A stretch of 64,000 bases of DNA from Candidatus Latescibacterota bacterium (GCA_965248265.1 CBDFJF010000002.1:1184001-1248000), one strand, 5' to 3'. Positions 27,437 through 52,827 are shown, numbered from the stretch's first letter. A program made the numbers and translations. The notes: a model not told the origin generated them from the letters alone.

Positions 27437-28264
27437 TCAGGACCAGACGAAGATCTCGTCGTCGTCGGGGGAGGTCGCGAAGAAGCTGGCCAATACCGCA
27501 CGCGGACTGTCGCCAACCACGTGCGGCACCTCGTGGACATTCTCCGAAGAGAAGAAGTACAAATCCCCCGGTTCAAGGTGCACCTGAACACGCTCGATCC
27601 CGTTCTCGGCGACGTGCTCCCGGAAGGCCTCGGTCACCAGGATGGGCTGCAGCTCGGGTGTCCCCTGGCAGTTGTAGAGAAAAGGCTCGCCCGTGTCGCC
27701 GGCCGTGGCCGAGTTTTGGAAACAGAGCACCCCAGCGAACTGCTGCTTGAAACGGGAAACGTCCCAGTCGAAGGCCTTCGAGCGCCTGACCACCGAGTCG
27801 TAGTGGGGGCCGTGACCGAGCTCCTCGTGGTAGATGCGGAAGATGGCAGGACCGTACTGCCGGCCATCCGGCTCGTGCGCCGTCATCACTTTTTTGTTCG
27901 GTGCCAACCGCGCCAGCGCATCGTACATCGTGCGGACTGGATTGCGGTAGCCATCGAAGAGCGTCGAGAACAGCTCGTGGGTCTGTTGCGCGTGGGCGAA
28001 GAACGCTTCACGATCGACGCGGTGGGAACCGAAGCTGGTACCGATGTCGACCCGGGTCTTGCCAGCCGCCGACTCGTCCGGTGAGTGGAGCAGGCCTCGC
28101 TCGCGGAAGCGCTCCATCAGGGCACGACAGTGGTCGGACGGGTAGATGCCGCGCAGGACGAAGGCGGGCACCTCGCGCTGGGCAAGCGCCTCAAGGGGTT
28201 GCGGGTAGCGCTCGAGGATCTCTTCGGGCGTGCCCTCTACGGGAGTCCAGGCAGTCGTCATCAT
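27437..28264 (-). CDS. Fe(II)/2OG dioxygenase (PhyH-like)
   Basis: PAIFRIY, GPHYD, LEPGDLYFF..ENVHEV, PRAVLA; start codon overlaps the end of the repeat element. Confidence 0.82.
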   Translation of the reverse strand: MMTTAWTPVEGTPEEILERYPQPLEALAQREVPAFVLRGIYPSDHCRALMERFRERGLLHSPDESAAGKTRVDIGTSFGSHRVDREAFFAHAQQTHELFSTLFDGYRNPVRTMYDALARLAPNKKVMTAHEPDGRQYGPAIFRIYHEELGHGPHYDSVVRRSKAFDWDVSRFKQQFAGVLCFQNSATAGDTGEPFLYNCQGTPELQPILVTEAFREHVAENGIERVQVHLEPGDLYFFSSENVHEVPHVVGDSPRAVLASFFATSPDDDEIFVWS

Positions 28265-28558
28265 GATGTAAAGAACGATAAGGGCCCGTTATAGGGAGTC
28301 AAGATCGCTTGCGGCTTGGTGTCGAATGAAAACTTGAGGTTTTTTGAGGGGTGGCGATGTGCGTTTTCGCTTAGCTCGTCGGGCATGATGGTCTTGGATT
28401 CAGGGCTGAGGATGGTTTTTTTGGCGTTTTTGCTGATCCGCAAGGTCGATTCAGGCCCATCGGTCCCGTCGGATCAGGCGGTACCCGCTCGAATCAGGCT
28501 GCGTATTCGAGCTCAGATTGCTGAGAAAGCCGTGCCGGTGCGATGGGTGGTGGCCGAG
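28261..28558 (-). repeat. Non-coding dispersed element, copy 1 (~300 bp)
   Basis: Near-identical to 33277-33573; begins (+ strand) TCATGATGTAAAGAACGATAAGGGCCCGTTATAGGGAGTCAAG. Confidence 0.95.
28275..28302 (-). promoter_or_regulatory. Putative sigma70-like promoter within the element (TTGACT-N16-TATCGT), pointing into the adjacent gene
   Basis: Minus strand reads TTGACT ccctataacgggccct TATCGT; both hexamers and the spacing are kept in copies 2 and 3. Confidence 0.45.
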
Positions 28559-28701
28559 TTTGCCGGACATATCCATATTTTCATCTCTAAGATGAGGAGG
28601 AAAGCAACTGGTGACGAGTGAACCTGTTGTCGATACTATCCCTGACGGCCAGATGACGTGGAGATGTGAGGCAATCGAAATGAGGCTCGAAGTAGAGCAC
28701 A

Positions 28702-29445
28702 ATGAGCACTGATACGAGTCGAGCACTTGTGACGGGCGCAGCAAGCGGGATCGGTCGAGCCGTCGCCGAGAATCTGATCGCAAAGGGCATAGCAGTTACT
28801 GCCGTCGACATCGACGGGAGTGGAATGCAGAAGGCGTTTAAAGGCGACGCCGAAATTCTGCCGGCAGACCTCGGTGATATCGAGCAGCGCGAGGCCGTGT
28901 GCGAGGCCGGGATCGGCTGCGACTACCTCGTGAACGCCGCGGGCATCCTGCGTTTGAAGCCGATCACGGAAATCACCGTCGACGACTGGAGGAACGTGAT
29001 GCGGATAAATGGCGAGAGCACCTTCTTCCTGTGCCAGAAGATCGGCCCGAGCATGTCTGCCGGCGGGTCGATCGTGAACTTGTCGTCCGCCTCCGCAAAG
29101 CTCGCCGACACAACCGAGGCCGCTGTCTACGCCGCATCGAAAACGGCGATCCTGTCGGTGACGCGTTCTTTCGCCTACGCGCTGGCGCACATACCGGTGC
29201 GCGTCAACGCCATATGCCCCGGCATCATCGATACGTCCATGCAGGAGCAGATTCTGGAACGCGTGTCGCCTATGAGGGGGATGACGGTGGAGGAATTGAA
29301 GCGGGTTCGCCACGCGAACATACCGCTGGGCCGCAGCGCCGCTCCTGAGGAGCTCGCCGGTTACATATGGTTTCTGCTCTCGCCCGAAGCCGGCTACATT
29401 ACCGGCCAGGCGCTGAACTATGGAGGAGGCACCATCACATGGTGA
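28702..29445 (+). CDS. Short-chain dehydrogenase/reductase
   Basis: TGAASGIG, LVNAAG, YAASK, VNAICPG. Confidence 0.93.
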   Translation: MSTDTSRALVTGAASGIGRAVAENLIAKGIAVTAVDIDGSGMQKAFKGDAEILPADLGDIEQREAVCEAGIGCDYLVNAAGILRLKPITEITVDDWRNVMRINGESTFFLCQKIGPSMSAGGSIVNLSSASAKLADTTEAAVYAASKTAILSVTRSFAYALAHIPVRVNAICPGIIDTSMQEQILERVSPMRGMTVEELKRVRHANIPLGRSAAPEELAGYIWFLLSPEAGYITGQALNYGGGTITW

Positions 29446-29469
29446 GGGTGTGCAGCCCGACCCTCGCGG

Positions 29470-29946
29470 CTAGCACGCCGTCGCGCCCGGCGGTGGCGGG
29501 TCACGCTCGACGAACTCCAGCCAGTTGCCGTCGGGGTCCTGCAGGTAACAGGCCTTTTTCGCCCAGGGATACTCTGCGTCGGGACGGACCGCAGGCGGAT
29601 TGACGAACCTGATTCCCGACGACGACAACGTTTGATGGAACGCGTCCACATCGTCCACAATGAATGCGAGATGAGCTGTGCCGATTTCGTTCAGCTCCCG
29701 CGGCTCCGCTTCGATTCCTGCAGGATTGAGATACTGCAGCAATTCGATGGAGTGTCTCATGTCTCCGATTCCCAGGCAGACAGCGTGGAGCTTGGCGTCC
29801 TGAAACCCCGTGAGTTTGGAGATTCTCTCCCCTTCGATGACGGCGCTTCTCTCTTCTACGAAACCGAGGGTGTCGCGGTAGAAAGCGAGTGCCTGATCCA
29901 TATTGCGAACAACGAAGCTGGTGTGAAACATCCATTCCACTTTCAC
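29470..29946 (-). CDS. VOC/glyoxalase family protein
   Basis: HTSFVVRNM..ALAFY, IELLQY, HLAFIVDD, YLQDPDGNWLEF. Confidence 0.9.
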   Translation of the reverse strand: MKVEWMFHTSFVVRNMDQALAFYRDTLGFVEERSAVIEGERISKLTGFQDAKLHAVCLGIGDMRHSIELLQYLNPAGIEAEPRELNEIGTAHLAFIVDDVDAFHQTLSSSGIRFVNPPAVRPDAEYPWAKKACYLQDPDGNWLEFVERDPPPPGATAC

Positions 29947-30032
29947 GATCGCCTCCTGTGCCGGTCGTGCGGTCTCCGTGAGTCAGCCGATTGCGCTGAG
30001 ATCGTCGAGCCAGCTGGAAAGTCGATGTTGCG

Positions 30033-30286
30033 ATGAGCGTCGACAAGACCACCCTCACCTGTGATCCACACTTCCATATGTGGGACCTCCCCAATCGACC
30101 CAATCCGAACCTCGGCGAGGCGACGTTCGAGCGATTGCCCACCTATGTGGCCTCGGAGCATTGGCCGCACTCCCCAACATCTACGTGAAGTTGTCCATGC
30201 TCTGGTTTGCCCGGGATGGCTACCACCAGGCCCCGGCGAAAGAGGCCATAGTGCGGGATCGACCGATCGTCGAGATCACCTGGTAA
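30033..30286 (+). pseudogene. Internally deleted amidohydrolase (Amidohydro_2-like)
   Basis: N-terminal piece MSVDKTTLTCDPHFHMWDL...PTY joined out of frame to a late piece ALAALPNIYVKLSML. Confidence 0.7.
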
Positions 30287-30302
30287 CCGAGAGAGTACGT
30301 GA

Positions 30303-31349
30303 ATGGAAACCTACCGCGCCGTCATCGTTGGACTGACCGGCATCGGTGCCCGTCGACCGCCAGAGCCAACAGACCTGCCGCTCTACGGTGCCATGCCGGC
30401 GTCGCACGCCGCCTCATACCATCGCTATCCACAGACCGAGGTCACGGGCGTGTGCGACGTCCGCCAGGAGGCCCTGGATGAATTCAGGGAAAACTGGGCC
30501 GACGTGTGGCCTCAAGTGAGTTACTACACCGACTACCGCGAGATGTTCGAGAAGGAGCGCCCTGACCTGGTCAGTGTCGTGACGTCGGACCACCTCCACG
30601 CCGACATCACCGCCGCCGCCGCCGAAAGCAGCGCCCGCGGCATCCTGTGCGAGAAGCCGATCGCCACGACTTTGGCCGACGCCGACCGCATGATCGCTGC
30701 TGCCGAGGCCAACGATGTGGTGCTGTCGATCGAACATACCCGGCGCTGGAACGCCGAGCATCACAAAGTCCGGGAGCTCATCCGCAGCGGCGAGATCGGC
30801 CCTTTGCGGACCGTCGTCGCCACCTTACTTAGTCCGCGCGCCATGCTGTTCCGCAACGGGACCCACACCATCGACACGATCTGTTTCTTTGCCGAATCGG
30901 ACCCGGTCTGGGTGTCTGCGGAGCTGGAGGAGGGGTTCGAACACTTCACCGAATACAATACCGGGGGTGGCCGCGATCCGGGGGCCGATCCGGCAGCTTC
31001 CGCCTACATCCGCTTCGCCAATGGGGTGCGCGCTTTCTACAACGGCGTCAAGACTCAGATGCTGGGCTCGCAGCTCGAGCTGCAATGCGACGATGGGCGC
31101 ATCGAGGTGTCGGAACGGGGGGCGGCCCTCGTCCAGTCCGATTCGCACGTCGCCTGGACACGGCGGGAGTTACGGCCTGATCGCTACATGTACACGCAGC
31201 AGCTGGGCGCCGTCGCGGAGCTCGTCGACGCCGTCGAGAACGGCAGTGAGCTGGTCTCGCCGGCGCGCGAAGCCCGAAAGACACTGCAGATCATACTGGC
31301 TATCCTGAAATCGCACGGGGGCGGCAACACCAGGATCGATCTCTCGTAG
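30303..31349 (+). CDS. Gfo/Idh/MocA oxidoreductase
   Basis: VGLTGIG, PDLVSV.T..HLH, ILCEKP, NGTHTID. Confidence 0.92.
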   Translation: METYRAVIVGLTGIGARRPPEPTDLPLYGAMPASHAASYHRYPQTEVTGVCDVRQEALDEFRENWADVWPQVSYYTDYREMFEKERPDLVSVVTSDHLHADITAAAAESSARGILCEKPIATTLADADRMIAAAEANDVVLSIEHTRRWNAEHHKVRELIRSGEIGPLRTVVATLLSPRAMLFRNGTHTIDTICFFAESDPVWVSAELEEGFEHFTEYNTGGGRDPGADPAASAYIRFANGVRAFYNGVKTQMLGSQLELQCDDGRIEVSERGAALVQSDSHVAWTRRELRPDRYMYTQQLGAVAELVDAVENGSELVSPAREARKTLQIILAILKSHGGGNTRIDLS

Positions 31350-31389
31350 AAGAGTCGATCACCTTCACGTCGAGCTGCGCCGGAGAGGG

Positions 31390-32082
31390 CTACTCGAATC
31401 CATCAACGACCTGGCGCAGCAGCAACGGATCGTCGCCGATGACACCTCCGACGCCGTTGGCCACGGCGCGGCGCAGGCGCTGGGGATCGCAGCTGCCATC
31501 CTTCCCGGTCACGACGAACGCGGGGGCACCCAGGTCAGCGGCCCGGGTTGCGACTTCGGCGTCGACGAGATGATCGCGGGCGATCAGCAGGCGCCTGTGC
31601 TCGTCAGCGACGCAAAAGGCCAGGCGGCCGCGACTGCAGCCGATGCTGGCGACTTGCCGTGACTGCAGATCGAGCTGGCTCTCAGACAGGTGGTTGAACA
31701 GGTACGCGCGCTCGGCCAGGCCAGCCGCGCTCACGGCTTCGCCGACCCGCTCCTGCTGACCTGCCGCCTTGAGCTCGAACAGGATCCACGTCAGCTGCGT
31801 CGCGACCAGGAAGTCGAGGATCTCCGCCAGGGCTGGCACGGCCTCACCACCCGATCCGCGCAAACGGCGCATCTGCTCGAGCGTCAACTCGCTCACCGAA
31901 CCGCTGCCATCCGTCGTGCGTCCGACGGTCTCGTCATGCATCGCCACGATGTGGCCATCCCTCGTCATGCGGAGGTCGAGTTCCAGCCCGCTCGCGCCTT
32001 CATCAATGGCAAGCTGGAAAGCAGCCAGGGTGTTTTCCGTCTTCTTCAGCATGGCCCCACGGTGGGCGATGACGTCGGTCAT
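31390..32082 (-). CDS. Glycerophosphodiester phosphodiesterase family
   Basis: IAHRGA, ENTLAAF, ELDLRMTRDG..V.MHD, FELK. Confidence 0.88.
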   Translation of the reverse strand: MTDVIAHRGAMLKKTENTLAAFQLAIDEGASGLELDLRMTRDGHIVAMHDETVGRTTDGSGSVSELTLEQMRRLRGSGGEAVPALAEILDFLVATQLTWILFELKAAGQQERVGEAVSAAGLAERAYLFNHLSESQLDLQSRQVASIGCSRGRLAFCVADEHRRLLIARDHLVDAEVATRAADLGAPAFVVTGKDGSCDPQRLRRAVANGVGGVIGDDPLLLRQVVDGFE

Positions 32083-32447
32083 GCTCTCAATACAGCATGA
32101 TCAGAGGGTCCTCGCAAGTACAGCCGCCCCAAAATGTTCAATCCCGGCTCCTATCGACCATAGCACACCGGCGAAGTCAGGTTGCGGAGCGCCTTGATGA
32201 CGGTAAGGGAACGTCGGCGCTCGTGCTGGGATTCTGCTTGGTGGGCACGCCCTTCCAGAAAACGGGAACCGCTACTGGCAGGCCCTTCTACCCGGACTTC
32301 GTCGTCCGCAGTCGCTCGAATCCCGACTCCGTGCTGACCGACTACGCTGAATGGGCGCGGATGTGGGGGGCGATCCATCGAAGTCGAAGCTTGCCGCCGG
32401 CGGAACTTGCTCGGCGCCTGGCATCCGCGTCCTGGCTGATCGCGCCC

Positions 32448-33236
32448 TCACGGAGCCTCATCCTCGAACAGAGATGGGAAGAACCGGTGCGGATGGCCCG
32501 GATTGTGGAACAGAATCTTCTGTTGACAGGTAAGCTCCTGGGTTGCCGGCTCTTGCACATGGCGGGGCCTCCAGGCCAGGTGAGAGATGCAGTACTTGTA
32601 GAACAGGGACCTCCGTTGGCAGGGACCGCGCCACGCCGTGGTGCCGTGTGTCAGTGACTCGGTGAACACGATGGCTGAGCCGGCCGGCGCTGGAGGCACC
32701 ACCACGCAGGGGGCATCTTCGCGGGCTTCCGCTATCTCCCGCGGCACCCGGTAGTGGCTCTTGTGACTCCCTGGGACACAGCAGAATCCGCCGACATCTG
32801 GGCCGAGATCCGACAGGGCCCAGCTCACGACTGCGTATCCCTCGGCGATTTCCAACTCGGGAAACGAGTAGTACTCGCCCGGTCCGTTGGGAGTGTGATT
32901 GGCCGAAGCACCGAAATCGGCGTGGAGGGGGCGACTAGGCATCCCCGGGTTCATGTGAATGCCGTAGATGCGGTCGAGTAGAAAACAGTCGCCCAGACGG
33001 AGGCGAAGGATCGGCATGACTCTCGGATGCGTCAGCAGCTGACAGAAAGGCGCGCCCCACTCCAGGAAACCAGCACCGTCAGGGGCGCGGCCGAACTTCA
33101 GCCGCTCCTCTGGCGGCGGCAGTGGCTGCCGATCGAGCAGCGAGTTGAGCGCCGCAACCTCGCCGGTGCTCAAGACGTTTTCGATTACGACATAGCCGTT
33201 TAAGTCGAAGAGGTACTTCAGCGTTTCATCATCCAT
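32448..33236 (-). CDS. PhyH-like dioxygenase
   Basis: YLFDLNGYVVIE, LHAD, GGFCCVPGSHK, FTESLTHG, RRSL; GGAGG before MDDE. Confidence 0.9.
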   Translation of the reverse strand: MDDETLKYLFDLNGYVVIENVLSTGEVAALNSLLDRQPLPPPEERLKFGRAPDGAGFLEWGAPFCQLLTHPRVMPILRLRLGDCFLLDRIYGIHMNPGMPSRPLHADFGASANHTPNGPGEYYSFPELEIAEGYAVVSWALSDLGPDVGGFCCVPGSHKSHYRVPREIAEAREDAPCVVVPPAPAGSAIVFTESLTHGTTAWRGPCQRRSLFYKYCISHLAWRPRHVQEPATQELTCQQKILFHNPGHPHRFFPSLFEDEAP

Positions 33237-33276
33237 CAGACCTCCCACAGCAACCTCCGTTTGACGCAGACAATGG

Positions 33277-33573
33277 TCATTATGTATAAGAACGATAAGG
33301 GCCCGTTATAGGGAGTCAAGATCGCTTGCGGCTTGGTGTCGAATGAAAAACTTGAGGTTTTTTGAGGGGTGCGATGTGCGTTTCGCTTAGCTCGTCGGGC
33401 ATGATGGTCTTGGATTCAGGGCTGAGGATGGTTTTTTGGCGTTTTTGCTGATCCGCAAGGTCGATTCAGGCACATCGATCCCGTCGGATCAGGCGGCACC
33501 CGCTCGAATCAGGCTGCGTATTCGAGCTCAGATTGCTGAGAAAGCCGTGCCGGTGCGATGGGTGGTGGCCGAG
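33277..33573 (-). repeat. Non-coding dispersed element, copy 2 (~300 bp)
   Basis: By eye differs from copy 1 by about 4 substitutions and 5 single-base indels. Confidence 0.95.
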
Positions 33574-33769
33574 CCGGCAGGATGCTGGCTCCAAGCCAGG
33601 CAAGTGCAGCGCGAATCGTGTCGGTGTGAGCCAGTGCGTGCGCGGTGACGAGAGTCAGCGCGATCTGTGCCATGAAGGTAAGGAGCCCCTTGAGTCCCTC
33701 ACCCCATGCGACGGGAACTTCCGCCGGTCCAGCTTCAGTCAGCCCCAGCCCCAGCGCCATCAGCTCCAC
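33574..33769 (-). pseudogene. Fragment of short-chain fatty acid transporter (AtoE-like)
   Basis: GLTEAGP..V.VAWGEGL.GLLTFMAQIALTLVTAHALAHT; ends at the boundary of repeat copy 2. Confidence 0.6.
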
Positions 33770-33951
33770 GAGTGTACGGGAGTGCCCAAGACGGGAGAGA
33801 TTTTTGGAAGGCCAGGGGAAGATTCGATATATTACCTGACAGCAGAGCCGCGAACTCGCTTACCGACGTATGCTGAGGCCACCGACTGCACCTGAAGTAA
33901 CCGGAACGATGGCTGGACACTTGCGAGGTTTCCTAAGAACTGGAGGGGAGG

Positions 33952-36810: not shown

Positions 36811-36864
36811 GTGCGTATTGACGAATACGGATGGAATCTGAAAGGAGTGTGACGTAAACAGGCA

Positions 36865-42867: not shown

Positions 42868-42876
42868 TCCGCCGCC

Positions 42877-45800: not shown

Positions 45801-46395
45801 AAACACGGCCGTTGGACTCGATTCGGACAACTCGGCGCCCTCCCTAGTCCAGAACCGGTTCGACAACAACATCACCGCGATCCGGGTAGACGGCGGTCGT
45901 ATCCCCGTGCAGATCAGCGACAACTCGTTCGTCGGCAACACCACGGCGATACAGAATTTGACGCGGCGGGTTCTTCAGGCCCAGGGCAACTTCTGGGGCA
46001 CGTCAGACAGCAGCGCAATCGCCAGTCAGCTGGAAGGACAAATCGAGTGGACGCCTTTTCTGGATGGAGAACCGGGGATGACGGCCGTCGGCGAAGCTGG
46101 CGGCCCCCCTCTTCCGGAGCGATTCGCCGTTCACCAGAATCACCCCAACCCCTTCAACAGCCTTACCGTCATACCGTTCGATCTACCTCATGATGCCATC
46201 GTTGAGGTGACGATATACGACGTTCTGGGCAGGCGGGTCAGGCGTCTGTTGTCGCAGCGTCTGGCAGCCGGGTACCACCGACTGGTATGGGACGGGAGGG
46301 ACGAGAGCGACCAGAGCGTCGGTTCCGGCCTCTATTTTTATTTTTTCAGGGCGGATCAGCTCACGCAGAGCGGTCGCATGCTGCTACTTCAATAA
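42877..46395 (+). CDS. Secreted M6 (immune inhibitor A-like) metalloprotease with beta-helix repeats and FlgD/secretion tail
   Basis: HEFGHVLGLPDLYD, GIGRWGLMG, EYFLIENRQ, GLLLWHVD; ISDN/ISAN/FEDN repeats; NHPNPFN, WDGRDE. Confidence 0.88.
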   Translation: MASPIRLIVRNVFIGLLAAALAGDAAAGREHLPLPVMTPVMAVDDEVFVCAGSGRPSDPRFGVSSHIAGKATAAAASTTTGTLSALVIFAKFRGEATSVNTKPVWADDLFDANLPGSFTHFYREMSGGQLEISGSVLPTRYTSRSRASAYVADQPGTIGKFALFNLEILEQADGDVDMGQFDNDGPDGAPNSGDDDGYVDVVFINLLSVPRDFFRSGASGFGSLGLETDFVTDDAAAGGGAIRIRSRYSGFGGTTQRGHVFTVTAATMCHEFGHVLGLPDLYDQSSQVAGELDPEIDSAGIGRWGLMGLGTLGWGIENGPNAFCAWSLAQLGWLGSGNERLEVIEESRSDIVLEQIDRDGRVLKVPISRDEYFLIENRQASGSFYNREIPGRGLLLWHVDEWADNDEERHKRVDLVCADGLYDDAGFPGSRPNPVSGGDNLDFHSRDTAYNDEHNGNQGDATDPFDGIRFRRFAHDTNPGARAYSGASRGLPLGFALENIADLGDGRMSLDVLLRQPVPGNIAESTMWSGEIDVSGDVVVERGATLTIQEGTTVRFSTDDERGAGFDPDRCELVVYGDLVLPTGGATTSMISAATRPRGSDWLGVFLMDGQAPDVEAAIASGVLQVANSSHGVVRLVLPAGRTVWGRGRRVIPSDLIVPADAELFVEAGANVRFSAGDLSLRGRSPGLVELVIAGTLAGGGDESSMARFTIDSAGTDDAWYGITAQPGSVVDLSFTEIFQCLVALSGEVPEGATVRLTDSLIRRVFLGLLFNLFGELQVDGTRFEAVTSNAIQVRGTGIARIRGSTLDAIGEEGISSSNCNIEAIDVLIEGSGSRDAEDPRSGLIATGGRGQRIDLWRSTISDNTLYGLDLTAWQGIVEVHGSEISANKSHGVVAAGLERLVFEDNAVVRNLGHGAHIGDTVVEIWTTEFEDNIGSGLLLDDGATGVIEMSLFRNGTGLALQGLRTMILRSNRFENTAVGLDSDNSAPSLVQNRFDNNITAIRVDGGRIPVQISDNSFVGNTTAIQNLTRRVLQAQGNFWGTSDSSAIASQLEGQIEWTPFLDGEPGMTAVGEAGGPPLPERFAVHQNHPNPFNSLTVIPFDLPHDAIVEVTIYDVLGRRVRRLLSQRLAAGYHRLVWDGRDESDQSVGSGLYFYFFRADQLTQSGRMLLLQ

Positions 46396-46399
46396 AGAC

Positions 46400-46490
46400 C
46401 GCATTGGAGGGCAGGCCCTTCGAAGAGGAAATCGTCGAGGAGACCGACAAGTATTACGTCTGGCGCGGGCGGGGGATCTTGCGCAAGGAC
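46400..46490 (+). pseudogene. Internal gene fragment, possibly UroD/MetE-like
   Basis: PFEEEIVEETDKYYVWR..GILRKD resembles a segment of UroD-like proteins; no start codon or continuation. Confidence 0.35.
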
Positions 46491-46521
46491 GTAATCAGCC
46501 CTATTCCTGTGGAATGCTGAC

Positions 46522-48036
46522 GTGCGCCAGAACCCCATAATGACTCTTACTGTGGCAGTGGAGAACGTCTTGGCAGAGCAGGCCAGCGGCGAGGGTTCCC
46601 TGGACATCGACTCCCGATTGGAGCTGTTCGTTGATGACTACCTGATAGACGAGCTGCACGGGACTCGACTCGTCCTCCACCACCCTCGTCCGGCAGAGGT
46701 GGCCCTGAGATTCGATCGGCCCTGGGAGGGTGCCTTCTGTGCCTACGTGACCGTGCTCCACGACGGTGACATCTACCGCATGTACTACCGGGGACAGCCC
46801 AACGCCATGCCGGACGGAAGCCTTGACGAGGTGACCTGTTACGCCGAGAGCCGTGACGGGATCCACTGGGAGAAGCCCGATCTGGGGCTGTTCGAGGTCG
46901 CAGGGACGCGGAAGAACAACGTCGTTCTGGGCTCCGAGTATGCGCCCGTACCCCACAACTTCATTGCGTTCGTGGACACTCGACCCGGGATTCCTTCCTC
47001 CCAGAGATACAAGGGCCTGGGGGGCCTCTTCCCCATATCCGAGGAGCGGCGCTTTAGCAACGGCCTCCTGGGCTTCACCTCCGAGGACGGGATTCGATGG
47101 AGGAAGATCCAGCAGGCACCACTGATCGGTCCCTCGCTCCACGTCTTCACCGACACCAGTCCCAGCCCGACCTTCTGGTCGCCACACGAAGGTCGCTACG
47201 TTTGCTACGTCCGGGCCTGGAGTAGGGATCCGAAGGAACCTCCCCACTTCGAAGGTTGGACCGGGAACGTGCGCTGGGTCGGTCGTACCACCTCCGAGGA
47301 CTTCCTCAACTGGACTCCGGTACAGATGATGGACGCCGGGGACTATCCGTTGGAGCACATCTACACCAATCAGACCAGCCCCTACTTCCGGGCTCCCCAC
47401 ATCTACCTCGGCGTGGCTGCTCGCTTCCTGCCAGGCCGTCAGGTGGTGAGTCAAGAGCAGGCTCGGAAGCTCCAGGTTGACCCCAAGTATTTCCAAGACT
47501 GCTCGGATGCTGTCCTGCTCACGAGCCGGGGCGGAACCCGCTACCAGCGTGCCTTCCTAGAGGCTTTCATGCGCCCGGGCATCGGTCTGCAAAACTGGAC
47601 GTCCCGTACCAACTACCCTTCTCTGAATCTGGTCCCCACAGGAGCTGAGGAAATCTCCCTCTACGTCCAGCACAAGTACGGCCAACCTGGCCACCAGCTC
47701 AGGCGATACACTCTGAGAACAGACGGCTTAGTGTCGGTAAATGCACCCTACGGGGGAGGAGAGTTTCTGACCCGAACCCTGAGATTCAGTGGAAGCGAAC
47801 TGGTCGTAAACTTCTCGACCTCTGCTCCCGGTGGCCTCCGGGTGGAAATCCAGAGTCCAGGTGGCCGGCCGATTACCGGTTATGCCCTCGATGACTCGGA
47901 CCAACTCATAGGAAATGAGATCGAACGGGTCGTCACTTGGAAGGGCAACCAGGATGTGGGGCCGCTCGCTGGCAAGCCGGTCCGCTTGCGCTTCGTGATG
48001 AAGGACGCAGATCTGTACTCCCTGAGGTTCAGATAG
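46522..48036 (+). CDS. Uncharacterised GH32/43-like beta-propeller plus beta-sandwich protein
   Basis: RLELFVDDYLI, YAESRDGIHWEKP.LG, SEDGIRW, LRTDG, NFSTSA.G..RVEI, DADLYSLRF. Confidence 0.78.
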   Translation: MRQNPIMTLTVAVENVLAEQASGEGSLDIDSRLELFVDDYLIDELHGTRLVLHHPRPAEVALRFDRPWEGAFCAYVTVLHDGDIYRMYYRGQPNAMPDGSLDEVTCYAESRDGIHWEKPDLGLFEVAGTRKNNVVLGSEYAPVPHNFIAFVDTRPGIPSSQRYKGLGGLFPISEERRFSNGLLGFTSEDGIRWRKIQQAPLIGPSLHVFTDTSPSPTFWSPHEGRYVCYVRAWSRDPKEPPHFEGWTGNVRWVGRTTSEDFLNWTPVQMMDAGDYPLEHIYTNQTSPYFRAPHIYLGVAARFLPGRQVVSQEQARKLQVDPKYFQDCSDAVLLTSRGGTRYQRAFLEAFMRPGIGLQNWTSRTNYPSLNLVPTGAEEISLYVQHKYGQPGHQLRRYTLRTDGLVSVNAPYGGGEFLTRTLRFSGSELVVNFSTSAPGGLRVEIQSPGGRPITGYALDDSDQLIGNEIERVVTWKGNQDVGPLAGKPVRLRFVMKDADLYSLRFR

Positions 48037-48191
48037 GAGCAGAGCCGCCCACTCGTCCCGGGGCTCCTCCTCTTGTCGCAGTACGGAGCCTACCTTCTCA
48101 TTGCCAGGCGAAGTGCTCAGGCTGACAAACATGCCGGAAACTCCGTCCCAGCCCATGAGACCCACCTGGCCTCAAGCATCCGAGCCCCGGG

Positions 48192-49070
48192 TCAGCGGAA
48201 GACGGGCTCGTATCGCTGCTTCGCAGACTCGTACCGTTCGGCGTACGACTGGCGCGCGCCGATCGCGTCGAAATGCTCCCGCTCGGCCTCGGTCCTGGCC
48301 CTCAGCTCCGCGAGCGGGTCGATTATCGCCCTGATGCGGGGGTTGTCGCTGCTCGCAAAGGGCTCGACGGGATCGTAGATGCTGCCCCTGTGGTCGTACC
48401 GCATGAAGGACGCGATCTCCTCGTCCGTCTCTGGCCATGCGGCGAAACGCAGCTTGAGATAGCGCCGGCCGGGCTGCATGCCGTACACGCCGTGGTAGAT
48501 CTTCTGGGTGAAGAAGACGATATCACCCGGGTCGGACTCTACGACAACTCCGGGGATGTCCGTGGGACTGAGCCCGTAGACCTTCTCAGTGGTGTCCTCT
48601 CCCTGCTCGTTCAGCAGAAGGAGGTCGTCATAAAGGGAGGGTCTGTGTGACCCCGGGATGAGACGAAGCGCCCCGGTGTCACCCCTGAGCTTTTCGAGGT
48701 AGAGGTGGAAGCTGTATGTAGTGGAGTGAGGCTCGCCGGGTCGGTCCGAGTGCCATCGATGCTCGCCGTTACCGGTTACCCCTGTATAGGACAGGCTACC
48801 GCCAGACCCGTTCCAGACAAAACGCGGTCCCAGTAGCTCCTCGACCGTGCCGAATATCCGGTCGTCAACGAGCATCCGTGTCCCCACCGGGCTCTTCTCT
48901 ATAATGTCCTCAAGGCCCTGGTTCTGTCCTGGCGGTCCACCTCCCCTCTGCTCCGCGAACAGCTTGTCCACTTCGTGGCTGAGCGACTCCATCTCGTCGG
49001 CCGAAAACTCCTGCCTCAAGCGGATGAACCCAAAGTCGTAGAAGTGGGCCTTCTGCTGTGGTGTGATCAT
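48192..49070 (-). CDS. PhyH-like dioxygenase
   Basis: FYDFGFI, RWHSD, GALRLIPGSH, PGDIVFF..IYHG, RR; AAGGAG RBS. Confidence 0.9.
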   Translation of the reverse strand: MITPQQKAHFYDFGFIRLRQEFSADEMESLSHEVDKLFAEQRGGGPPGQNQGLEDIIEKSPVGTRMLVDDRIFGTVEELLGPRFVWNGSGGSLSYTGVTGNGEHRWHSDRPGEPHSTTYSFHLYLEKLRGDTGALRLIPGSHRPSLYDDLLLLNEQGEDTTEKVYGLSPTDIPGVVVESDPGDIVFFTQKIYHGVYGMQPGRRYLKLRFAAWPETDEEIASFMRYDHRGSIYDPVEPFASSDNPRIRAIIDPLAELRARTEAEREHFDAIGARQSYAERYESAKQRYEPVFR

Positions 49071-49115
49071 GTCTCTGCTCCTTCGGGGCTGTAGCGAACG
49101 TGCGAAGTTCGATTT

Positions 49116-49147
49116 GTCAGCCCCTGCGACAAGCCGGGGGATTGACT
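49116..49147. repeat. REP/IS200-IS605-end-like imperfect hairpin
   Basis: GTCAGCCCCTGCGACAAGCCGGGGGATTGAC; minus strand AGTCAATCCCCCGGC... resembles IS200/IS605 subterminal palindromes; no tnpA present. Confidence 0.35.
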
Positions 49148-49245
49148 GAGAGCCAGCCCCGGGGATAACGAAGGCGAAGCGAATTCAGCAACAGACCGGC
49201 TTAGTGTTACCAATCCTACCCACTCTCGTTTCCAAGCCCGATCTG

Positions 49246-49530
49246 CCACTTACCTGCGAGTTATAAACGGGTCGGTAGTCAGTCAAGTTCGGATGTTCGG
49301 CTTTTCGAACCATGGACCGGGTTAGGCGGGATGTGTGGTCGGTGCGGCTATGGTGTGAAGGCAGCTATTTCGGGTTTGCGGCGGTGAGGACGCGGCTGGT
49401 TCGCGGTGGCGTCGACGGGTCTCGATTTAGGCCGCGGACGCTGCGAGCAGCGTTTCCACCCCTGCCGCTCGAAGCGAATGCAAGTGAGGTGCGGATCTGG
49501 GAAACGGATGAGGGGAGACGGCTGGGTGTG
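49246..49530 (-). repeat. Divergent member of the ~300-bp element family
   Basis: Shares collinear blocks (minus strand) TTCGAGCGG, GGCCTnAATCGA, TTCGA..AAGCCG, CGAnCTTGACTnnCTA, CCC.TTAT with copies 1-3; boundaries approximate. Confidence 0.6.
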
Positions 49531-49637
49531 TGCTCGGGGCAATGAGTGCGGCACCAAGCCCTTCGATCCGCGCGCCCAGCGCATGAGCTTCCGTGCCCGG
49601 ATTGTCGTCGGAGGCCTCCGGATGCTGCTTCGGTCAT
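49531..49637 (-). pseudogene. Multiply deleted tandem paralog of the upstream beta-helix gene
   Basis: Pieces MT.. / QHPEASDDNPGTE / LMRWARGSKGLVPHSLPRA match QHPEAADDNPGTE and VMRWARWSKAEVAHSLPRA of 49660-51426. Confidence 0.85.
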
Positions 49638-49659
49638 GACTCTCTGTTCTCCGATCGTG

Positions 49660-51426
49660 TTAAAGGTCCAATAGTCTCAGTCGGCGGCACACGGCCCCCC
49701 AGCCTTCGATGAACGGACCCACGGGGATTTCATCGCCGGGATACGGACGACCAAAATAGTCGAGACTCAACAGCTCGTCACGGGGCACCGTGCGGACCGC
49801 ATCGGTTTGGGACGACCAGGCCAGGCTCTGGTCCTCGGGATCGATCACCAGGTCGAGCTGGGCCATAGTGCTGTGGGTGTCCAGACCGGACGCCTGCCAG
49901 TCGCCCAGGCTGAAGCCCTCGCCCATGCCGGAGAGGATGTTGTAATCCGAGACATTCTCCATGACTTCGTAGTCGAATGCCACTGCGCACTGCACGATGA
50001 TGTTGTTGATGACGCGGTTGTGTTTGCAGAGGCCCACCCGGTCCCGGGTCGTCGTCTTCCGCATACGAACCCCGGCAAAACTGCAATTCAGTATCAGATT
50101 GTGGGCAATCAGCAGCTCGTCACAGTCCCGTTGGTAGATGCCGCTGCCCACTTCCACGTTGTAGACGATATTGTGGTCGACCACGTTGAGGACATCCGAT
50201 GCCTCGAAGAAGATCGCCCCGTTGCCAGCCGTGATGTCGTGCAGCAGATTCCGGCATACGCGCGAATTGTGGATCTTGAAATCGATCCAGATTCCGGTAG
50301 CAGCAACACAACGGTGGATGTGATTGCACTGCACCACACAGTCGATCGCGTAGAGGATCTTGATCCCTGCCGTCTCCAGATAGGACTGGATTTCCTGCCA
50401 GCCGCAATCGTGGACGTGGTTGCCAGTCATCAGGCTCCGTGCGACGACGGTTCCCTGAATGCCTCCTGTGCCGCAGTCGTATACATGATTGCCCCGCACC
50501 AGGTGGTCACCCGTGGTCTCGTACAGCTGCTGATAGTGTTTCTCGGCGCCCTCGTCGACGAACCCGCCGATCTCGATGCCCACAGAATTGATGTGACGGA
50601 CGGTGTTGTCCTCGATAATCCAGTGGTTGCCACCCCACGTCGCCACCGCGCCTTTTCCGGAGCGGATGAACCCATTGCCCGCATGCTCGAAAGTCAACCC
50701 CCTGATCCGGATGTAGCCCAACCCCTTCACCAGCGGGTTGAAGAGGTACTGCCGCGTCGTCACCTCGACTTCACAGGTGTTGGGATCGGCGCGGTCGAAG
50801 GGATGCACGAGCAGCCGATGGTTCTCTGCGTCGATCCAGAAGGCACCGGGGATCCGGGACAACACATCACACGTGGCGAGCTGGGTCAGACGCCGGCCGT
50901 TATGGAAGACGATGGCACGGGGCAAGGAGTGCGCGACCTCTGCTTTGGACCAACGGGCCCAGCGCATGACCTCGAAGTCCTCTTCGGTGGTGTTGACCAC
51001 GGCAAAAGGATGATCGCCTTCGAAGAACGTCTCGGGCAGATCGGTCATCCAAACTCTTGGCGAGCTCGGGAAGTCCGAATTCGTCCACGTCGCGCTCAGC
51101 AGGTCGGAACCGCGGATGATGGCTTCGGCGCCCGGCGCGGCCTCATAGCTGATCATCCCATCCGGCCCCGTGCCGCCGCGGCGAGGTTGGACCAACTCGC
51201 GGTAGATGCCTGACTTGATCAGCACCTTCTCCCGCGGCCCGACGACCTCGGCGGCGGCCTGAATGGTGAGGAACGGCGCCTCTTCGGTGCCCGGGTTGTC
51301 GTCGGCCGCCTCCGGATGCTGCTGATCCACGTAGTAGGCCTTCGCGTACTCCGTCTCGTCCTCCCAGACTGGGAACTGAGTCCCGTCCGGAAGAAGGATC
51401 GGTGAATCGTCATTCGGCATTGTCAT
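49660..51426 (-). CDS. Right-handed parallel beta-helix (pectin lyase-like, DUF1565-type) protein
   Basis: DDNPGT.EAPFLTIQAAA, GIYRE, WIIEDN, GIKI, GIWID; repeated N-ladders. Confidence 0.85.
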   Translation of the reverse strand: MTMPNDDSPILLPDGTQFPVWEDETEYAKAYYVDQQHPEAADDNPGTEEAPFLTIQAAAEVVGPREKVLIKSGIYRELVQPRRGGTGPDGMISYEAAPGAEAIIRGSDLLSATWTNSDFPSSPRVWMTDLPETFFEGDHPFAVVNTTEEDFEVMRWARWSKAEVAHSLPRAIVFHNGRRLTQLATCDVLSRIPGAFWIDAENHRLLVHPFDRADPNTCEVEVTTRQYLFNPLVKGLGYIRIRGLTFEHAGNGFIRSGKGAVATWGGNHWIIEDNTVRHINSVGIEIGGFVDEGAEKHYQQLYETTGDHLVRGNHVYDCGTGGIQGTVVARSLMTGNHVHDCGWQEIQSYLETAGIKILYAIDCVVQCNHIHRCVAATGIWIDFKIHNSRVCRNLLHDITAGNGAIFFEASDVLNVVDHNIVYNVEVGSGIYQRDCDELLIAHNLILNCSFAGVRMRKTTTRDRVGLCKHNRVINNIIVQCAVAFDYEVMENVSDYNILSGMGEGFSLGDWQASGLDTHSTMAQLDLVIDPEDQSLAWSSQTDAVRTVPRDELLSLDYFGRPYPGDEIPVGPFIEGWGAVCRRLRLLDL

Positions 51427-51442
51427 CTATGCCCCCCCTCTC

Positions 51443-51567
51443 TCATGATGTATAAGAACGATAAGGGCCCGCTATAGGGAGTCAAGATCGGTTGCGGCTT
51501 TGGTGTCGAACTAAACTCGAGGCTTTTTTGAGGGGCGGGATGGGTATATTGGGGTTTGTGGGGCATA
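51443..51567 (-). repeat. Non-coding dispersed element, copy 3 (short, ~125 bp)
   Basis: TCATGATGTATAAGAACGATAAGGGCCCGCTATAGGGAGTCAAGATCGGTTGCGGCTTTGGTGTCGAA...TTTTTTGAGGGG; similarity fades after ~51540. Confidence 0.9.
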
Positions 51568-51681
51568 GCGAGGGTGAAGCATGGCCCGGGCCATTCGACC
51601 ATCGTTTATCGGGACCTCAGCGTCGTGCAGGGCGAAAGAGGAGCGACGCTCATCTGCCTCCTTCGATCGCAACCAGGTCCA

Positions 51682-52827
51682 TTACCAATTCGTGACCGAT
51701 CCGTCGCGGCGACGCAGGCTAAACTCACGGGTGGAGTCCGACGGCGGCCTCAGGAGTGACTCGTCCACCTCCACGCCCAGTCCCGGCGCGTCGGGCACCA
51801 GCATGTTGGGACCGTCCGCCACCGGCTGCACCGGGTAGACCGCCTTGTCGTACCGGTCCACGTGCTCGGTTGGCGATTCGCGAATCTCCAGCCACGACAC
51901 GTTCGGAACGGCGGCGGCCAGATGGACCGTGGCGGCGGTGCAAAGTGGTCCCAGTGGGTTGTGCGGCATGAGATCGATGTAATGGGCCTCCGCTATGGCG
52001 GCGATCTTGACCGCTTCGGTAAGACCACCCACGATGCACACATCCGGGCGCGCGAAGTTCATGATGCCGCGCTCCAGGTACGGCAGGAAGTCCCACTTGC
52101 TGGTAAACTCTTCGCCGATAGCAAAGGGAACGTCCACCATGGCGCGGAGTGATTCGTACGCTTCGGGGGTCTCGGCGCGGATCGGTTCCTCCAGAAAATC
52201 GAGCGTCCCGGGAGGCATGCGGTGGCAGAGGGAGGCGGCTTCGGCCACGGTCAACCGGTGGTGATAGTCGACGCCGATGACCGCCTCTGAACCGACGGCT
52301 TCGCGCAATCGCGTGAGCCATTCGGCGGTCAGCGCTATCGACTCCCGCGGTTCGAACCGCCCTCCGGCCTCGAGCTCACCGAAGCCTATCCAGGTGCGAA
52401 TGACCTTCCAGCCGCGATCCATCAGCAGCTGTCCATCGGCGATCAGCTGATCCAGGGTGGGGGCCAGGGTGGTGGCAAAACAAGGAACGCAATCCCGCTG
52501 TTTCCCACCCAGGAGTTGATATACCGGCACCCCCAGCGCCTTGCCCGCCAGGTCGTGCAAGGCTATGTCGATGCCGGACATGGCTGCCGCAAGCACGCGG
52601 CCGCCTTCGCTGTAATGACTCCGATAGAGACGCTGCCAGTGCTCTCCGATAGCCATGGGATCCTCACCCAGCAACAGCCGGCGAAAGTGCTGCACCGCGC
52701 CGTCGACGGCCAGGGCCCGAATCCCGAATCCGGCTTCGCCCCAACCGTAGAGATCCGAATCTGTCTCCACCTTGACCAGGAACTGTTCGCACGGGCCGGT
52801 GTAGGTCTTGATGTCGGTGATTCTCAT
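51682..52827 (-). CDS. Mandelate racemase family, galactonate dehydratase-like
   Basis: LVKVETD..YGWGE, GIDIALHDL.GK, DYHHR, FLEEP, IGEE, PHNPLGP. Confidence 0.9.
   Translation of the reverse strand: MRITDIKTYTGPCEQFLVKVETDSDLYGWGEAGFGIRALAVDGAVQHFRRLLLGEDPMAIGEHWQRLYRSHYSEGGRVLAAAMSGIDIALHDLAGKALGVPVYQLLGGKQRDCVPCFATTLAPTLDQLIADGQLLMDRGWKVIRTWIGFGELEAGGRFEPRESIALTAEWLTRLREAVGSEAVIGVDYHHRLTVAEAASLCHRMPPGTLDFLEEPIRAETPEAYESLRAMVDVPFAIGEEFTSKWDFLPYLERGIMNFARPDVCIVGGLTEAVKIAAIAEAHYIDLMPHNPLGPLCTAATVHLAAAVPNVSWLEIRESPTEHVDRYDKAVYPVQPVADGPNMLVPDAPGLGVEVDESLLRPPSDSTREFSLRRRDGSVTNW

Follow-up and report, generated by a model that had tools for sequence, protein, structure and literature searches.

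A recurrent element upstream of intact genes in a Candidatus Latescibacterota genome corresponds to the oriIS end of an ISCR-like insertion sequence

Within the window, the whole 64,000-nucleotide stretch of DNA that was analysed (C2:1184001-1248000), a sequence of up to about 300 bp recurs on one strand upstream of intact genes, raising the question of what this element is and why it faces the starts of genes. An earlier note had described it as a family of non-coding ends of a rolling-circle or integrase-mobilised element, a candidate portable promoter or gene-capture system, and had placed its copies at the junctions of gene modules, a placement that we confirm (Table 1).

Table 1. Elements, neighbouring genes and candidate promoter matches; positions are those of the window unless prefixed with C2
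Feature	Position	Strand	Remarks
Copy 1	28266-28567	-	Transposase-gene 3' remnant 28494-28567 and 228-nt IS tail 28266-28493
Copy 2	33282-33590	-	Transposase-gene 3' remnant 33509-~33590 and 227-nt tail 33282-33508
Copy 3	51448-51592	-	Only the tail is present (positions 146-287 of the family model), with the end ...TTATCGTTCTTATACAT
Degenerate relic (fourth copy)	~49250-49460	-	Approximate coordinates
WelO5-like Fe(II)/2OG enzyme	27437-28264	-	Downstream of copy 1; full length, Pfam profile 9-277 of 277
PhyH dioxygenase	32448-33248	-	Downstream of copy 2; profile 1-212 of 213
Right-handed beta-helix protein	49660-51426	-	Downstream of copy 3; 88% DNA identity to a gene of relative G011
PhyH dioxygenase	48192-49070	-	Downstream of the relic by about 180 nt; 93% DNA identity to genes of relatives G021 and G002
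Broken AtoE/short-chain-fatty-acid transporter gene	33591-33769	-	N-terminal fragment adjoining copy 2
Beta-helix paralogue fragments	49532-49629	-	Repeats D7 and D8, adjoining the relic's ragged end
Sigma-70-like match TTGACT-16-TATCGT	28275-28302	-	Copy 1 tail, outward to the gene; 9/12, consensus match only
Sigma-70-like match TTGACT-16-TATCGT	33292-33319	-	Copy 2; 9/12, consensus match only
Transposase gene of the intact IS	C2:1842384-1843835		Tail directly after it on the same strand, running to 1844059
Further transposase genes	C2:1138204 and C2:1156736		Ahead of the window by 27-46 kb, in the same direction as all four window copies

Identity and anatomy of the element

The repeat family claimed for the window is real. 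The repeat search aligned 28271-28366, 33288-33383 and 51454-51549 without gaps (89% and 75%), as well as 28417-28567 with 33432-33582 (95%) and 28365-28430 with 33381-33446 (94%), and blastn gave 97% identity between copies 1 and 2 over 300 nt. The family is no chance effect, since the genome holds 34 BLAST matches and 88 iterated nhmmer matches. The three close copies all lie on the minus strand and share a sharp end, ...TTATCGTTCTT(A)TACAT, which is 1, 33 and 21 nt away from the start codons of the downstream genes (28264, 33248 and 51426), as had been noticed earlier. The sharp end had, however, been extended to CATGA, which in copy 3 lies outside the element and belongs to the gene downstream as native 5'-UTR. 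The fourth copy, originally placed at ~49246-49530, is a degenerate relic that the family HMM does not match and whose weak similarity is to the tail of another subfamily, with local alignment scores of 45-58 versus shuffle means of 29-31, a 30-nt patch resembling the 3' end of a B-type transposase gene (27/30) and a patch resembling an A-type tail, CTTGACTGACTACCGA (16/16).

The element had been taken for non-coding, but its first ~70 nt are the final 21-24 codons of a transposase gene from the IS91 family, followed by ~227 nt of the IS 3' non-coding tail. In the alignment, the 5' part corresponds to the transposase C-terminus and then TGA, and the remnant translations (...LPARPPPIAPAR...) share 12 residues identical to the intact protein. 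The window copies retain the last 0 to 24 transposase codons plus the tail: the remnant of copy 1 reads ...RPPPIAPARLSQQSELEYAA and then a stop, with the tail ending at the oriIS terminus ...TTATCGTTCTTTACAT, and the remnant of copy 2 reads ...LPARPPPIAPARLSQQSELEYAA and then a stop, with the tail ending ...TTATCGTTCTTATACAT.

Element copies are found directly 3' of Y2_Tnp genes and on the same strand when the Pfam matches (PF04986, 16 in the genome) are compared with the nhmmer matches. An intact copy of 1753 bp elsewhere in the genome (C2:1842307-1844059) is composed of a short left (terIS-side) end, a gene for a 483-residue HUH transposase and a ~225-nt non-coding tail to the oriIS terminus, bearing out the proposal that the repeats represent the ends of an IS91/ISCR-type element with rolling-circle transposition. 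The transposase (L031:2009-3457, 483 aa) matches the Pfam domains Y2_Tnp (E 2.7e-28) and Zn_Tnp_IS91 (E 3.6e-19). Its LCRY motif has a single tyrosine, which is the mark of ISCR, two being that of IS91, and in this it differs from IS91 proper. The genome contains at least two subfamilies that share about 69% DNA identity.

With the element identified as transposase-gene end plus tail, its sharp end corresponds to the oriIS terminus, and its ragged end marks the point beyond which the remainder of the IS is missing. Such truncation prevails among the 58 termini in the genome: a near-full transposase gene is present in only 3-4, short C-terminal remnants in 17 (two of which match the gene of a neighbouring copy) and the tail alone in 37. 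The 54 termini without a near-complete gene are mostly stubs shorter than about 450 nt. The 5' ends of the copies are ragged and start anywhere from position 1 to 244 of the family model.

The ISCR-like terminus is formed by the last 23 nt, ...TTATCG(G/T)TCCTATAC(G/A)T, and not by TTGACTCCCTATA, which had been read as an oriIS-like word. For comparison we used a plasmid ISCR-like element beside sul2 (NZ_CP070541.1, L103), which is presumably ISCR2-related and comes from a different phylum. Its "IS91 family transposase" is 40% identical to the one described here over 497 columns, nearly the full length, with HxH and LCRY in both, and a co-oriented dihydrofolate reductase gene lies downstream. 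The plasmid tail (230 nt) ends GGTGCTTTATACTTCCTATACTC and the tail here (224 nt) ends GGTGCTTTATCGGTCCTATACGT; outside the terminal 23 nt, where the plasmid terminus and the intact IS agree at 18 positions, the tails are unalignable. The plasmid terminus was set empirically, most of 25 records among the matches listed (41 matched) stopping at query 230-232.

A 4-bp ATAA-N5-9-TTAT core is found in 41/58 copies. A subterminal hairpin is expected at IS91-family oriIS ends; folding the terminal 50 nt as DNA did not support one (median z 0.13; z < -1.5 in 3/58). IS91, IS801 and IS1294 are described (PMC13181058) as having an HUH rolling-circle transposase with Zn_Tnp_IS91 and Y2_Tnp, distinct oriIS and terIS ends, and neither inverted repeats nor target duplication, all of which resembles the element studied here, and one-ended transposition is given as their route to mosaics. 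Unlike in these elements, no convincing subterminal hairpin and no conserved GTTC/CTTG-type tetranucleotide adjoins the terminus here: among the 58 termini no 4-mer follows more than twice, and GTTC, CTTG, GTCC or CTCG lies within +/-2 nt in 12.

Junctions, neighbouring genes and orientation

Both ends of copy 1 are bridged by independent unitigs from two runs, probably of the source sample (27517-28300 and 28529-29400), so these junctions are no assembly artefact, a possibility that the earlier note had wished to see checked. Two observations point to insertion. The homology of the beta-helix gene downstream of copy 3 to relative G011 begins at the IS terminus, which lies 21 nt ahead of the start codon with the ribosome-binding site intact, and the WelO5-like gene, whose start codon is 1 nt past the terminus of copy 1, is present with its 5' end in a contig of a different seawater study where the IS is absent. 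The far ends are ragged and adjoin broken genes, as had been described, namely an AtoE fragment at copy 2 and beta-helix fragments at the relic. The AtoE/SCFA_trans fragment covers profile positions 36-87 of 453 (E 4e-6, slightly below the Pfam cut-off) and is in frame with the transposase remnant of copy 2, giving a joint ORF at 33509-33769. It is true that three of the four downstream genes encode dioxygenases (WelO5-like, PhyH and PhyH), but with at least 153 PhyH matches in the genome this chiefly reflects the base rate.

The orientation lock extends genome-wide, although as a strong bias. With gene calls from a home-made ORF and codon-score caller instead of a curated annotation, the downstream neighbour is co-oriented with the element in 45/55 cases where about 55% is expected (p about 6e-5 against a null of 0.553), compared with only 28/53 for the upstream neighbour and 58% for genes within 20 kb. 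Between same-direction gene pairs the element lies in sense 24 times versus 6 in antisense, and it is found in 19 divergent and 3 convergent contexts. Of the 52 cases classified, the terminus points to the 5' end of a gene in 43 and to a 3' end in 9. A rough test in relatives replicated the bias in one of two, with 15/18 in G018 and 10/17 in G015.

Candidate promoter and the ISCR1 precedent

The sigma-70-like matches in the tails are part of 3 such sites found in a 6-kb region, compared with 1.4 +/- 0.9 in shuffles, and a second candidate hexamer pair, TCGACA-17-T(A/T)(A/G)ACT, was read by eye. The sequence with which the hexamers overlap shows family-wide conservation, which probably serves transposition. 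Co-orientation is independent of the TTGAC variant, being 14/20 for tails with TTGAC-type hexamers, 22/29 for TA(A/G)AC-type hexamers and 7/7 for tails with neither.

For ISCR1, Lallement et al. (2018, PMC6218425) report a same-direction adjacent gene in 84% of 1127 copies, and outward promoters PCR1-1 and PCR1-2 in the 232-bp oriIS region that raise reporter activity 13- to 15-fold. The likeness to ISCR1 is close: in both, a non-coding tail of ~230 nt follows the transposase gene and ends at oriIS with variable sequence beyond, most adjacent genes share the element's direction (84% of 1127 versus 45/55 here), and the tail carries outward sigma-70-like hexamers, the promoter here being predicted and ISCR1 being set alongside by description. 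ISCR1 has resistance genes in class 1 integrons as its cargo or neighbours, whereas here, in an uncultured marine bacterium, these are ordinary metabolic genes, and most copies here, unlike ISCR1, are transposase-less stubs. The repeat is no new kind of element, the same pattern being already known from ISCR1, and from the hexamers and this analogy we infer that the tail may act as an outward promoter.

Explanations of the pattern

The best explanation for the observed identity, anatomy, genome-wide copy set and orientation bias, to which we give a probability of roughly 0.8, is that each copy is a stub, shortened from the 5' side, of an IS91-family insertion sequence of ISCR type, with its orientation kept by selection for a substitute promoter. 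IS copies would have inserted just upstream of genes, and their left parts would then have been lost by deletion, by nested insertion, or in rolling-circle events that were aborted or read through. An insertion severing a gene from its promoter would survive chiefly where the tail, reading outward, provided a replacement, and the strong preference of termini for pointing into the 5' end of co-oriented genes would be the trace of that selection. The stubs are immobile by themselves because they are without left end and transposase. At least three co-oriented downstream ORFs (L066, L079 and L080) are 5'-truncated fragments, so that their co-orientation is unexplained by selection for expression.

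It is unlikely that the stub and the downstream gene or genes moved together instead, a complete, like-oriented IS further downstream having missed its terIS, read through the gene and ended inside an older IS, the stub, gene and IS having transposed as one piece by a "sandwich" or one-ended route, and the ragged end being the termination point with the adjoining broken gene as the new target. One-ended transposition is given for 1-14% of IS91/IS1294 events (PMC13181058), and for ISCR28 a sandwich is described in which a resistance gene lies between two oriIS ends in succession (PMC12772301). The shared direction of the four window copies and the two transposase genes before the window, the closest relatives of genes flanking a stub (88-93% DNA identity) lying at unlinked loci in other genera, the broken genes at the ragged ends and the strongly skewed stub lengths would all fit such movement. 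This mechanism, however, does not predict that stub and captured gene run in the same direction; no identical pair of stub and gene was found at two places, no empty site with both flanks contiguous was found, also via the gene adjoining MR_MLE, and copies 1 and 2, despite their 97% identity, precede genes of different families.

Somewhat more doubtful still is a purely mechanistic origin of the bias, in which the transposase would insert its single-stranded circle preferentially, and in one orientation, where DNA is single-stranded at promoters or at 5' ends of transcribed genes; the bias would be there from insertion onward, with no promoter function needed. IS91 is described to integrate as a bottom-strand single-stranded circle (PMC13181058), and the predominance of gene 5' ends, the co-orientation of the truncated fragments (3/3) and the indifference of the bias to the promoter-like variant agree with this. 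Against it, the available parts of the same source describe no such targeting for IS91, and the termini have no conserved target word, the four candidate words near 12/58 of them included. A version based on the replication strand is excluded because upstream neighbours and genes within 20 kb are unbiased.

Compared with selection on inserted stubs, the two remaining readings are very improbable. A tyrosine-recombinase, dif-like or integron-like cassette exchange site, the first two of which the earlier note had considered, has in its favour only the likeness of CAT(T/G)A-TGTATA to a recombinase half-site and the location of copies at module junctions; it is disfavoured, as the 18 Phage_integrase matches all lie outside both the window and the zones rich in the element (1.13-1.24 and 2.2-2.8 Mb), and the sequence is fully explained by the transposase 3' end and the IS tail. 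The intergenic position upstream of genes and the high copy number would also suit a structured RNA, a riboswitch or leader, or a classical MITE, but Rfam gave no match (best E 0.69, for an archaeal snoRNA model) and folding is no better than in shuffles, while a MITE, already doubted by the earlier note, is disfavoured by the ragged 5' ends and by the one intact copy examined, where terminal inverted repeats are absent (aligning the left 50 nt with the reverse-complemented right 50 nt gives a score of 5, shuffle mean 6.2) and the flanks, AAGCAGGTGTTG and AGAAGCCGCGCG, show no target duplication; the 5' part is instead a coding remnant.

Repeat family and its link to an IS91-type transposase

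The repeats in which the earlier note had seen a portable promoter or gene-capture element are shown here to be stubs, the oriIS-side ends of an ISCR-type insertion sequence (IS), pointing into gene starts. The repeat search found three co-linear blocks common to 28271-28567 and 33288-33582 (89 to 95% identity without gaps) and a third repeat copy at 51454-51549 (75%), and blastn gave 97% identity for copy 1 against copy 2 in an alignment of 300 nt. All three close copies lie where they had been described, on the minus strand upstream of ORF starts, with long minus-strand ORFs starting at 28264, 33248, and 51426, being 1, 33, and 21 nt past the sharp ends of copies 1, 2, and 3. The minus-strand ends read ...CTTGACTCCCTATA(A/G)CGGGCCCTTATCGTTCTT(A)TACAT.

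The source genome is near-complete (7.32 Mb, 2 contigs, 59.6% G+C) and contains 34 BLAST matches to the element, rising with iterated nhmmer from 34 to 72 and 88, which places the family well above chance. The summed unitig depth over 28271-28337 in sequencing run X2 is about 330 versus 13 in the flanks (about 25-fold), consistent with a high copy number. The terminal 75 nt of the element is found at 90 to 95% identity in a 2183-nt contig that comes from a separate study of seawater, so marine populations other than this one have the IS family too.

The genome has 16 matches to the Pfam domain Y2_Tnp (PF04986), and element copies follow Y2_Tnp genes directly on the 3' side and on the same strand, as judged from nhmmer and Pfam positions. 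Aligned to these transposase-linked copies, the first ~70 nt of the window copies are the last transposase codons, where the remnant translations of copy 1 (...RPPPIAPARLSQQSELEYAA) and copy 2 (...LPARPPPIAPARLSQQSELEYAA) match the stretch ...GLPARPPPIAPARP... of the intact transposase. The tail from the transposase stop codon to the sharp end measures 227-228 nt in copies 1 and 2. The description of the element as noncoding holds for the tail and fails for the first ~70 nt. At copy 2, an 86-aa chimeric ORF joins the N-terminal fragment of a broken AtoE gene in frame with the last 21 transposase codons.

The search for a full-length version yielded an intact transposase (L031:2009-3457, 483 aa; gene at C2:1842384-1843835) with matches to Y2_Tnp (2.7e-28) and Zn_Tnp_IS91 (3.6e-19). 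Its identity to the "IS91 family transposase" genes of thousands of plasmids is ~41% across 93% of the protein and, in a pairwise comparison with the transposase adjoining sul2 on NZ_CP070541.1, 40%, with common motifs HIHVLFLDG/HYHMLFLDG and LCRYVARPA/LCRYISRPA (intact/plasmid). The complete IS is 1753 bp long, its left boundary being set by a 99% left-end copy elsewhere and by a paralogous flank which stops there and does not resume past the right end. Neither inverted termini nor a target duplication was found in this intact IS, which disposes of a MITE, in agreement with the earlier note.

Features of the source genome (G000; contigs C1 and C2) and of the window, with matches in relatives' genomes (G002, G011, G021)
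Feature	Location	Strand	Match or evidence
Copy 1, upstream of WelO5-like gene	window 28266-28567	-	
Copy 2, upstream of PhyH gene	window 33282-33590	-	
Copy 3, upstream of beta-helix gene	window 51448-51592	-	
Fourth copy (putative relic)	window ~49250-49460	-	
Chimeric ORF	window 33509-33769	-	
PhyH gene	window 48192-49070		G021:C4, G002:C1
Beta-helix gene	window 49660-51426		G011:C18
MR_MLE (enolase-type) gene	window 51682-52827		G011:C135
PhyH examples	window 7779-8408, 9953-10504, 11647-12264, 32610-33209, 48489-49040, 56178-56804		Pfam
Beta-helix paralogues	G000:C2:1073986, 1295802, 1297609, 1343964, 2282581		
Complete IS	C2:1842307-1844059		
Transposase gene, then element	C2:1842876-1843526, then 1843755-1844054	+	Y2_Tnp and nhmmer
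Transposase gene, then element	2466489-2466767, then 2466996-2467280	+	Y2_Tnp and nhmmer
Paralogous flank of complete IS	C1:1258091-1258822		
Internally deleted derivative	G000:C2:1836990-1837709		
IS110-family genes or fragments	G000:C2:2689744-2691018, C2:2786795-2788084, C2:2659403-2659774		

The genome holds 58 termini, of which 37 are tail-only. Among the rest, a single terminus still follows an intact transposase gene, two or three follow near-full genes that are broken, one belongs to an internal-deletion derivative, and 17 more keep short C-terminal remnants, mostly of 30-80 codons (two of these match the gene of a neighbouring copy). Since the copies start at family-model positions ranging from 1 to 244, the far end is really ragged, as it had appeared in the window. 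The idea of a pseudo-terIS word common to the ragged ends was set aside: a break near CTCG is seen in copy 1 as well as copy 2, but these two are near-identical, and the model positions at which the remaining copies begin are scattered. The other 30 nhmmer matches are confined to the 3' end of the transposase gene plus the proximal tail and belong to a second subfamily with a different distal tail, the two subfamilies (A- and B-type) being ~69% identical in DNA. Outside the window, a ~720-bp internally deleted B-type derivative retains 126 nt of left end, which match the intact copy at 99%, together with some of the transposase 3' region and an oriIS tail, and may be a non-autonomous mini-IS.

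The divergent fourth copy proposed at ~49246-49530 stands only in part. This interval has no match to the family HMM but contains two element-like patches, one of 30 nt resembling the B-type transposase 3' end (27/30) and one resembling the A-type tail, including CTTGACTGACTACCGA (16/16), with local alignment scores of 45-58 against shuffle means of 29-31. We treat it as a degenerate relic.

Terminus, insertion alleles, and relatives

In the 58 copies reaching the family-model end, similarity ends after ...TTATCG(G/T)TCCTA(T/A)(A/C)C(G/A)T. The terminus of the plasmid element was placed empirically by searching with the 631 nt after the NZ_CP070541.1 transposase stop; 41 records matched, and among the 25 listed the match breaks off in most at position 230-232 after the stop. 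The plasmid terminus (GGTGCTTTATACTTCCTATACTC) and that of the intact copy (GGTGCTTTATCGGTCCTATACGT, 224 nt past the transposase stop) are identical at 18/23 positions, with the same tail length (224 versus ~230 nt), and PMC6218425 gives 232 bp for the ISCR1 oriIS region. This comparison identifies the sharp end as the oriIS terminus. Together with the Y2_Tnp-linked copies and the transposase 3' remnant, it bears out the rolling-circle (IS91/ISCR) origin proposed earlier, whereas the tyrosine-recombinase or dif-like site offered beside it was discarded, with no integrase gene near. The word TTGACTCCCTATA, previously taken as oriIS-like, lies ~25 nt inside the terminus and is not the ISCR-like word. 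Folding gave no signal of a stable terminal hairpin, and an Rfam search of the element found no known RNA family.

The sharp end had also been drawn to include CATGA, which a comparison with relatives corrects for copy 3. Homology of the beta-helix gene to relatives begins at the terminus, the leader running in relatives from ...CAA into CATGATGGGAGAGG...ATG and in the window from ...TACAT into CATGAGAGAGGGG...ATG, so CATGA is the native leader, with the ribosome-binding site kept. Genes around the stubs have 88-93% DNA identity to other genera of the same family, at unlinked places, and the PhyH, beta-helix, and MR_MLE neighbours suggest that members of the family have exchanged genes recently. 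On the same contig lie at least five paralogues of the beta-helix gene (76-77% DNA identity).

An allele lacking the IS is provided by a contig from another study of seawater, in which the 5' part of the WelO5-like gene extends to 28267 and is followed by unrelated sequence. For copy 1, separate unitigs in runs X1 and X2, which probably come from the source sample, bridge the junctions on both sides; these junctions are not the assembly artefacts that had been considered. The search for an empty site with contiguous flanks yielded none: the gene following MR_MLE in the relative G008 has its orthologue at another place in the source genome (C2:888720-889592, 66% aa), with no remainder near any stub. 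A search of 40 relatives recovered no element DNA; many of their assemblies are fragmented, a state in which repeats frequently drop out. On the relatives' tails the family HMM gave weak partial matches only, with the strict terminal motif in 4/35 loci and termini not exactly placeable. The transposase is present in 15/24 same-family genomes sampled, with up to 41 matches in one. By our own reading of the match table, same-family fragments keeping the C-terminal end outnumber those keeping the N-terminal end by ~63 to 12, so that oriIS-side retention looks like a trait of the lineage.

Orientation toward downstream genes

Gene calls came from a purpose-written program based on ORFs and codon scores, which gave 5790 genes covering 87% of the genome. 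The orientation lock first described in the window extends genome-wide as a bias: counting only genes of 100 aa or more, the first one past the terminus is co-oriented in 45/55 cases (three termini lie inside ORFs), or in 43/53 without two genes counted twice. The null is not 0.5, because the downstream gene in divergent intergenic regions is always co-oriented; against the value from random intergenic points (0.553), p is 6e-5 and, de-duplicated, 1.4e-4. A replication-strand effect is excluded, since co-orientation is seen in 28/53 upstream neighbours and in 58% of the genes lying within 20 kb. The contexts comprise same-direction pairs with the element sense (24) or antisense (6), divergent pairs (19), and convergent pairs (3), for random expectations of 0.28, 0.28, 0.28, and 0.17, respectively; the terminus thus faces a gene 5' end in 43/52 classified cases. 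The median distance to the start is 158 nt, with 28/45 below 200 nt.

A rough test in two single-contig relatives reproduced the bias in one (G018, 15/18 co-oriented) but not in the other (G015, 10/17), based on 35 C-terminal transposase fragments and the first ORF past an assumed 230-nt tail, with clustered loci, approximate termini, and a codon model borrowed from the source genome.

Downstream genes include PhyH, WelO5-like, TonB receptor, GH2, GFO/IDH/MocA, and IS110 transposase genes, among others (38/56 neighbours with a Pfam match at 1e-5), and at least three co-oriented ORFs are 5'-truncated fragments (L066, L079, L080). An enrichment of dioxygenases was rejected as base rate, given how strongly PhyH genes are expanded: their Pfam matches number at least 153 (~2.6% of genes), and the 64-kb window alone has seven or more.

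Possible mechanism and place among known systems

According to PMC13181058, IS91-family transposition runs from oriIS to terIS and integrates via a single-stranded circle, and termination fails in 1-14% of events, moving adjacent DNA. For ISCR1, PMC6218425 reports a same-direction adjacent gene in 84% of 1127 copies and two promoters in the oriIS region, which raise reporter activity 13- to 15-fold and are required for cefotaxime resistance from blaCTX-M-9. By analogy, insertions upstream of genes would survive mainly where an outward promoter in the tail substitutes for the displaced one, and the left parts of the inserted copies would be lost afterwards. A scan of the 6-kb region gave, in copies 1 and 2, a candidate promoter TTGACT-16-TATCGT (9/12 consensus match; 3 sites in the scan versus 1.4 +/- 0.9 expected), and a second candidate, TCGAC(A/T)-17-T(A/T)(A/G)ACT, was read by eye, with TCGAC(A/T) in 47/58 copies. 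Both overlap sequence conserved family-wide, and the orientation bias is independent of the TTGAC variant (14/20, 22/29, 7/7), leaving promoter supply by the tail plausible but unproven. Alternatively, stub-plus-gene units might be captured by read-through between same-direction copies, as PMC12772301 describes for the ISCR28 "sandwich", or the insertion mechanism might itself be orientation-specific.

In its transposase domains, its repeat position, its terminal motif, and the absence of both inverted repeats and a target duplication, the element has the defining features of the IS91/ISCR family that were tested. The tetranucleotide target of IS91 proper is not shown by the element, which is closest to the ISCR group. 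ISCR and IS91 proper are distinguished as one-tyrosine and two-tyrosine elements, respectively. The orientation bias is as strong as for ISCR1, but the genes concerned are not resistance genes. PMC6218425 portrays ISCR elements as studied almost only as carriers and drivers of antibiotic resistance, with transposition shown for none.

The element kind is already known; the present analysis adds a census of the whole genome, an orientation test with controls, the comparison of termini, and the insertion-free allele. A single environmental genome brings together one or more intact copies, stubs by the dozen, a derivative with an internal deletion, and a strong orientation bias. The related transposases in same-family genomes make this lineage a natural system for asking whether the ISCR1 same-direction rule comes from selection for promoter supply or from the insertion mechanism, how stubs originate, and what share rolling-circle elements have in mosaic islands outside the clinic. 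It is doubtful, at about one chance in four, that in this family of uncultured marine bacteria the stubs are kept by selection across the genome as mobile outward promoters that also bound modules, with rolling-circle read-through from one same-direction copy to another shuffling metabolic genes between loci and genera, each module with its own promoter-bearing stub. The genes shuffled would be PhyH and WelO5 oxygenases, beta-helix enzymes, and TonB receptors, and ISCR-style capture and expression would then be a general engine of niche adaptation beyond clinical resistance plasmids. For annotation, it is best to mask such ~300-nt repeats as remnants of an IS instead of calling them new regulatory elements.

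IS110-family transposase genes or fragments lie 190-320 nt past three oriIS termini, and IS110-type elements may target these IS ends.
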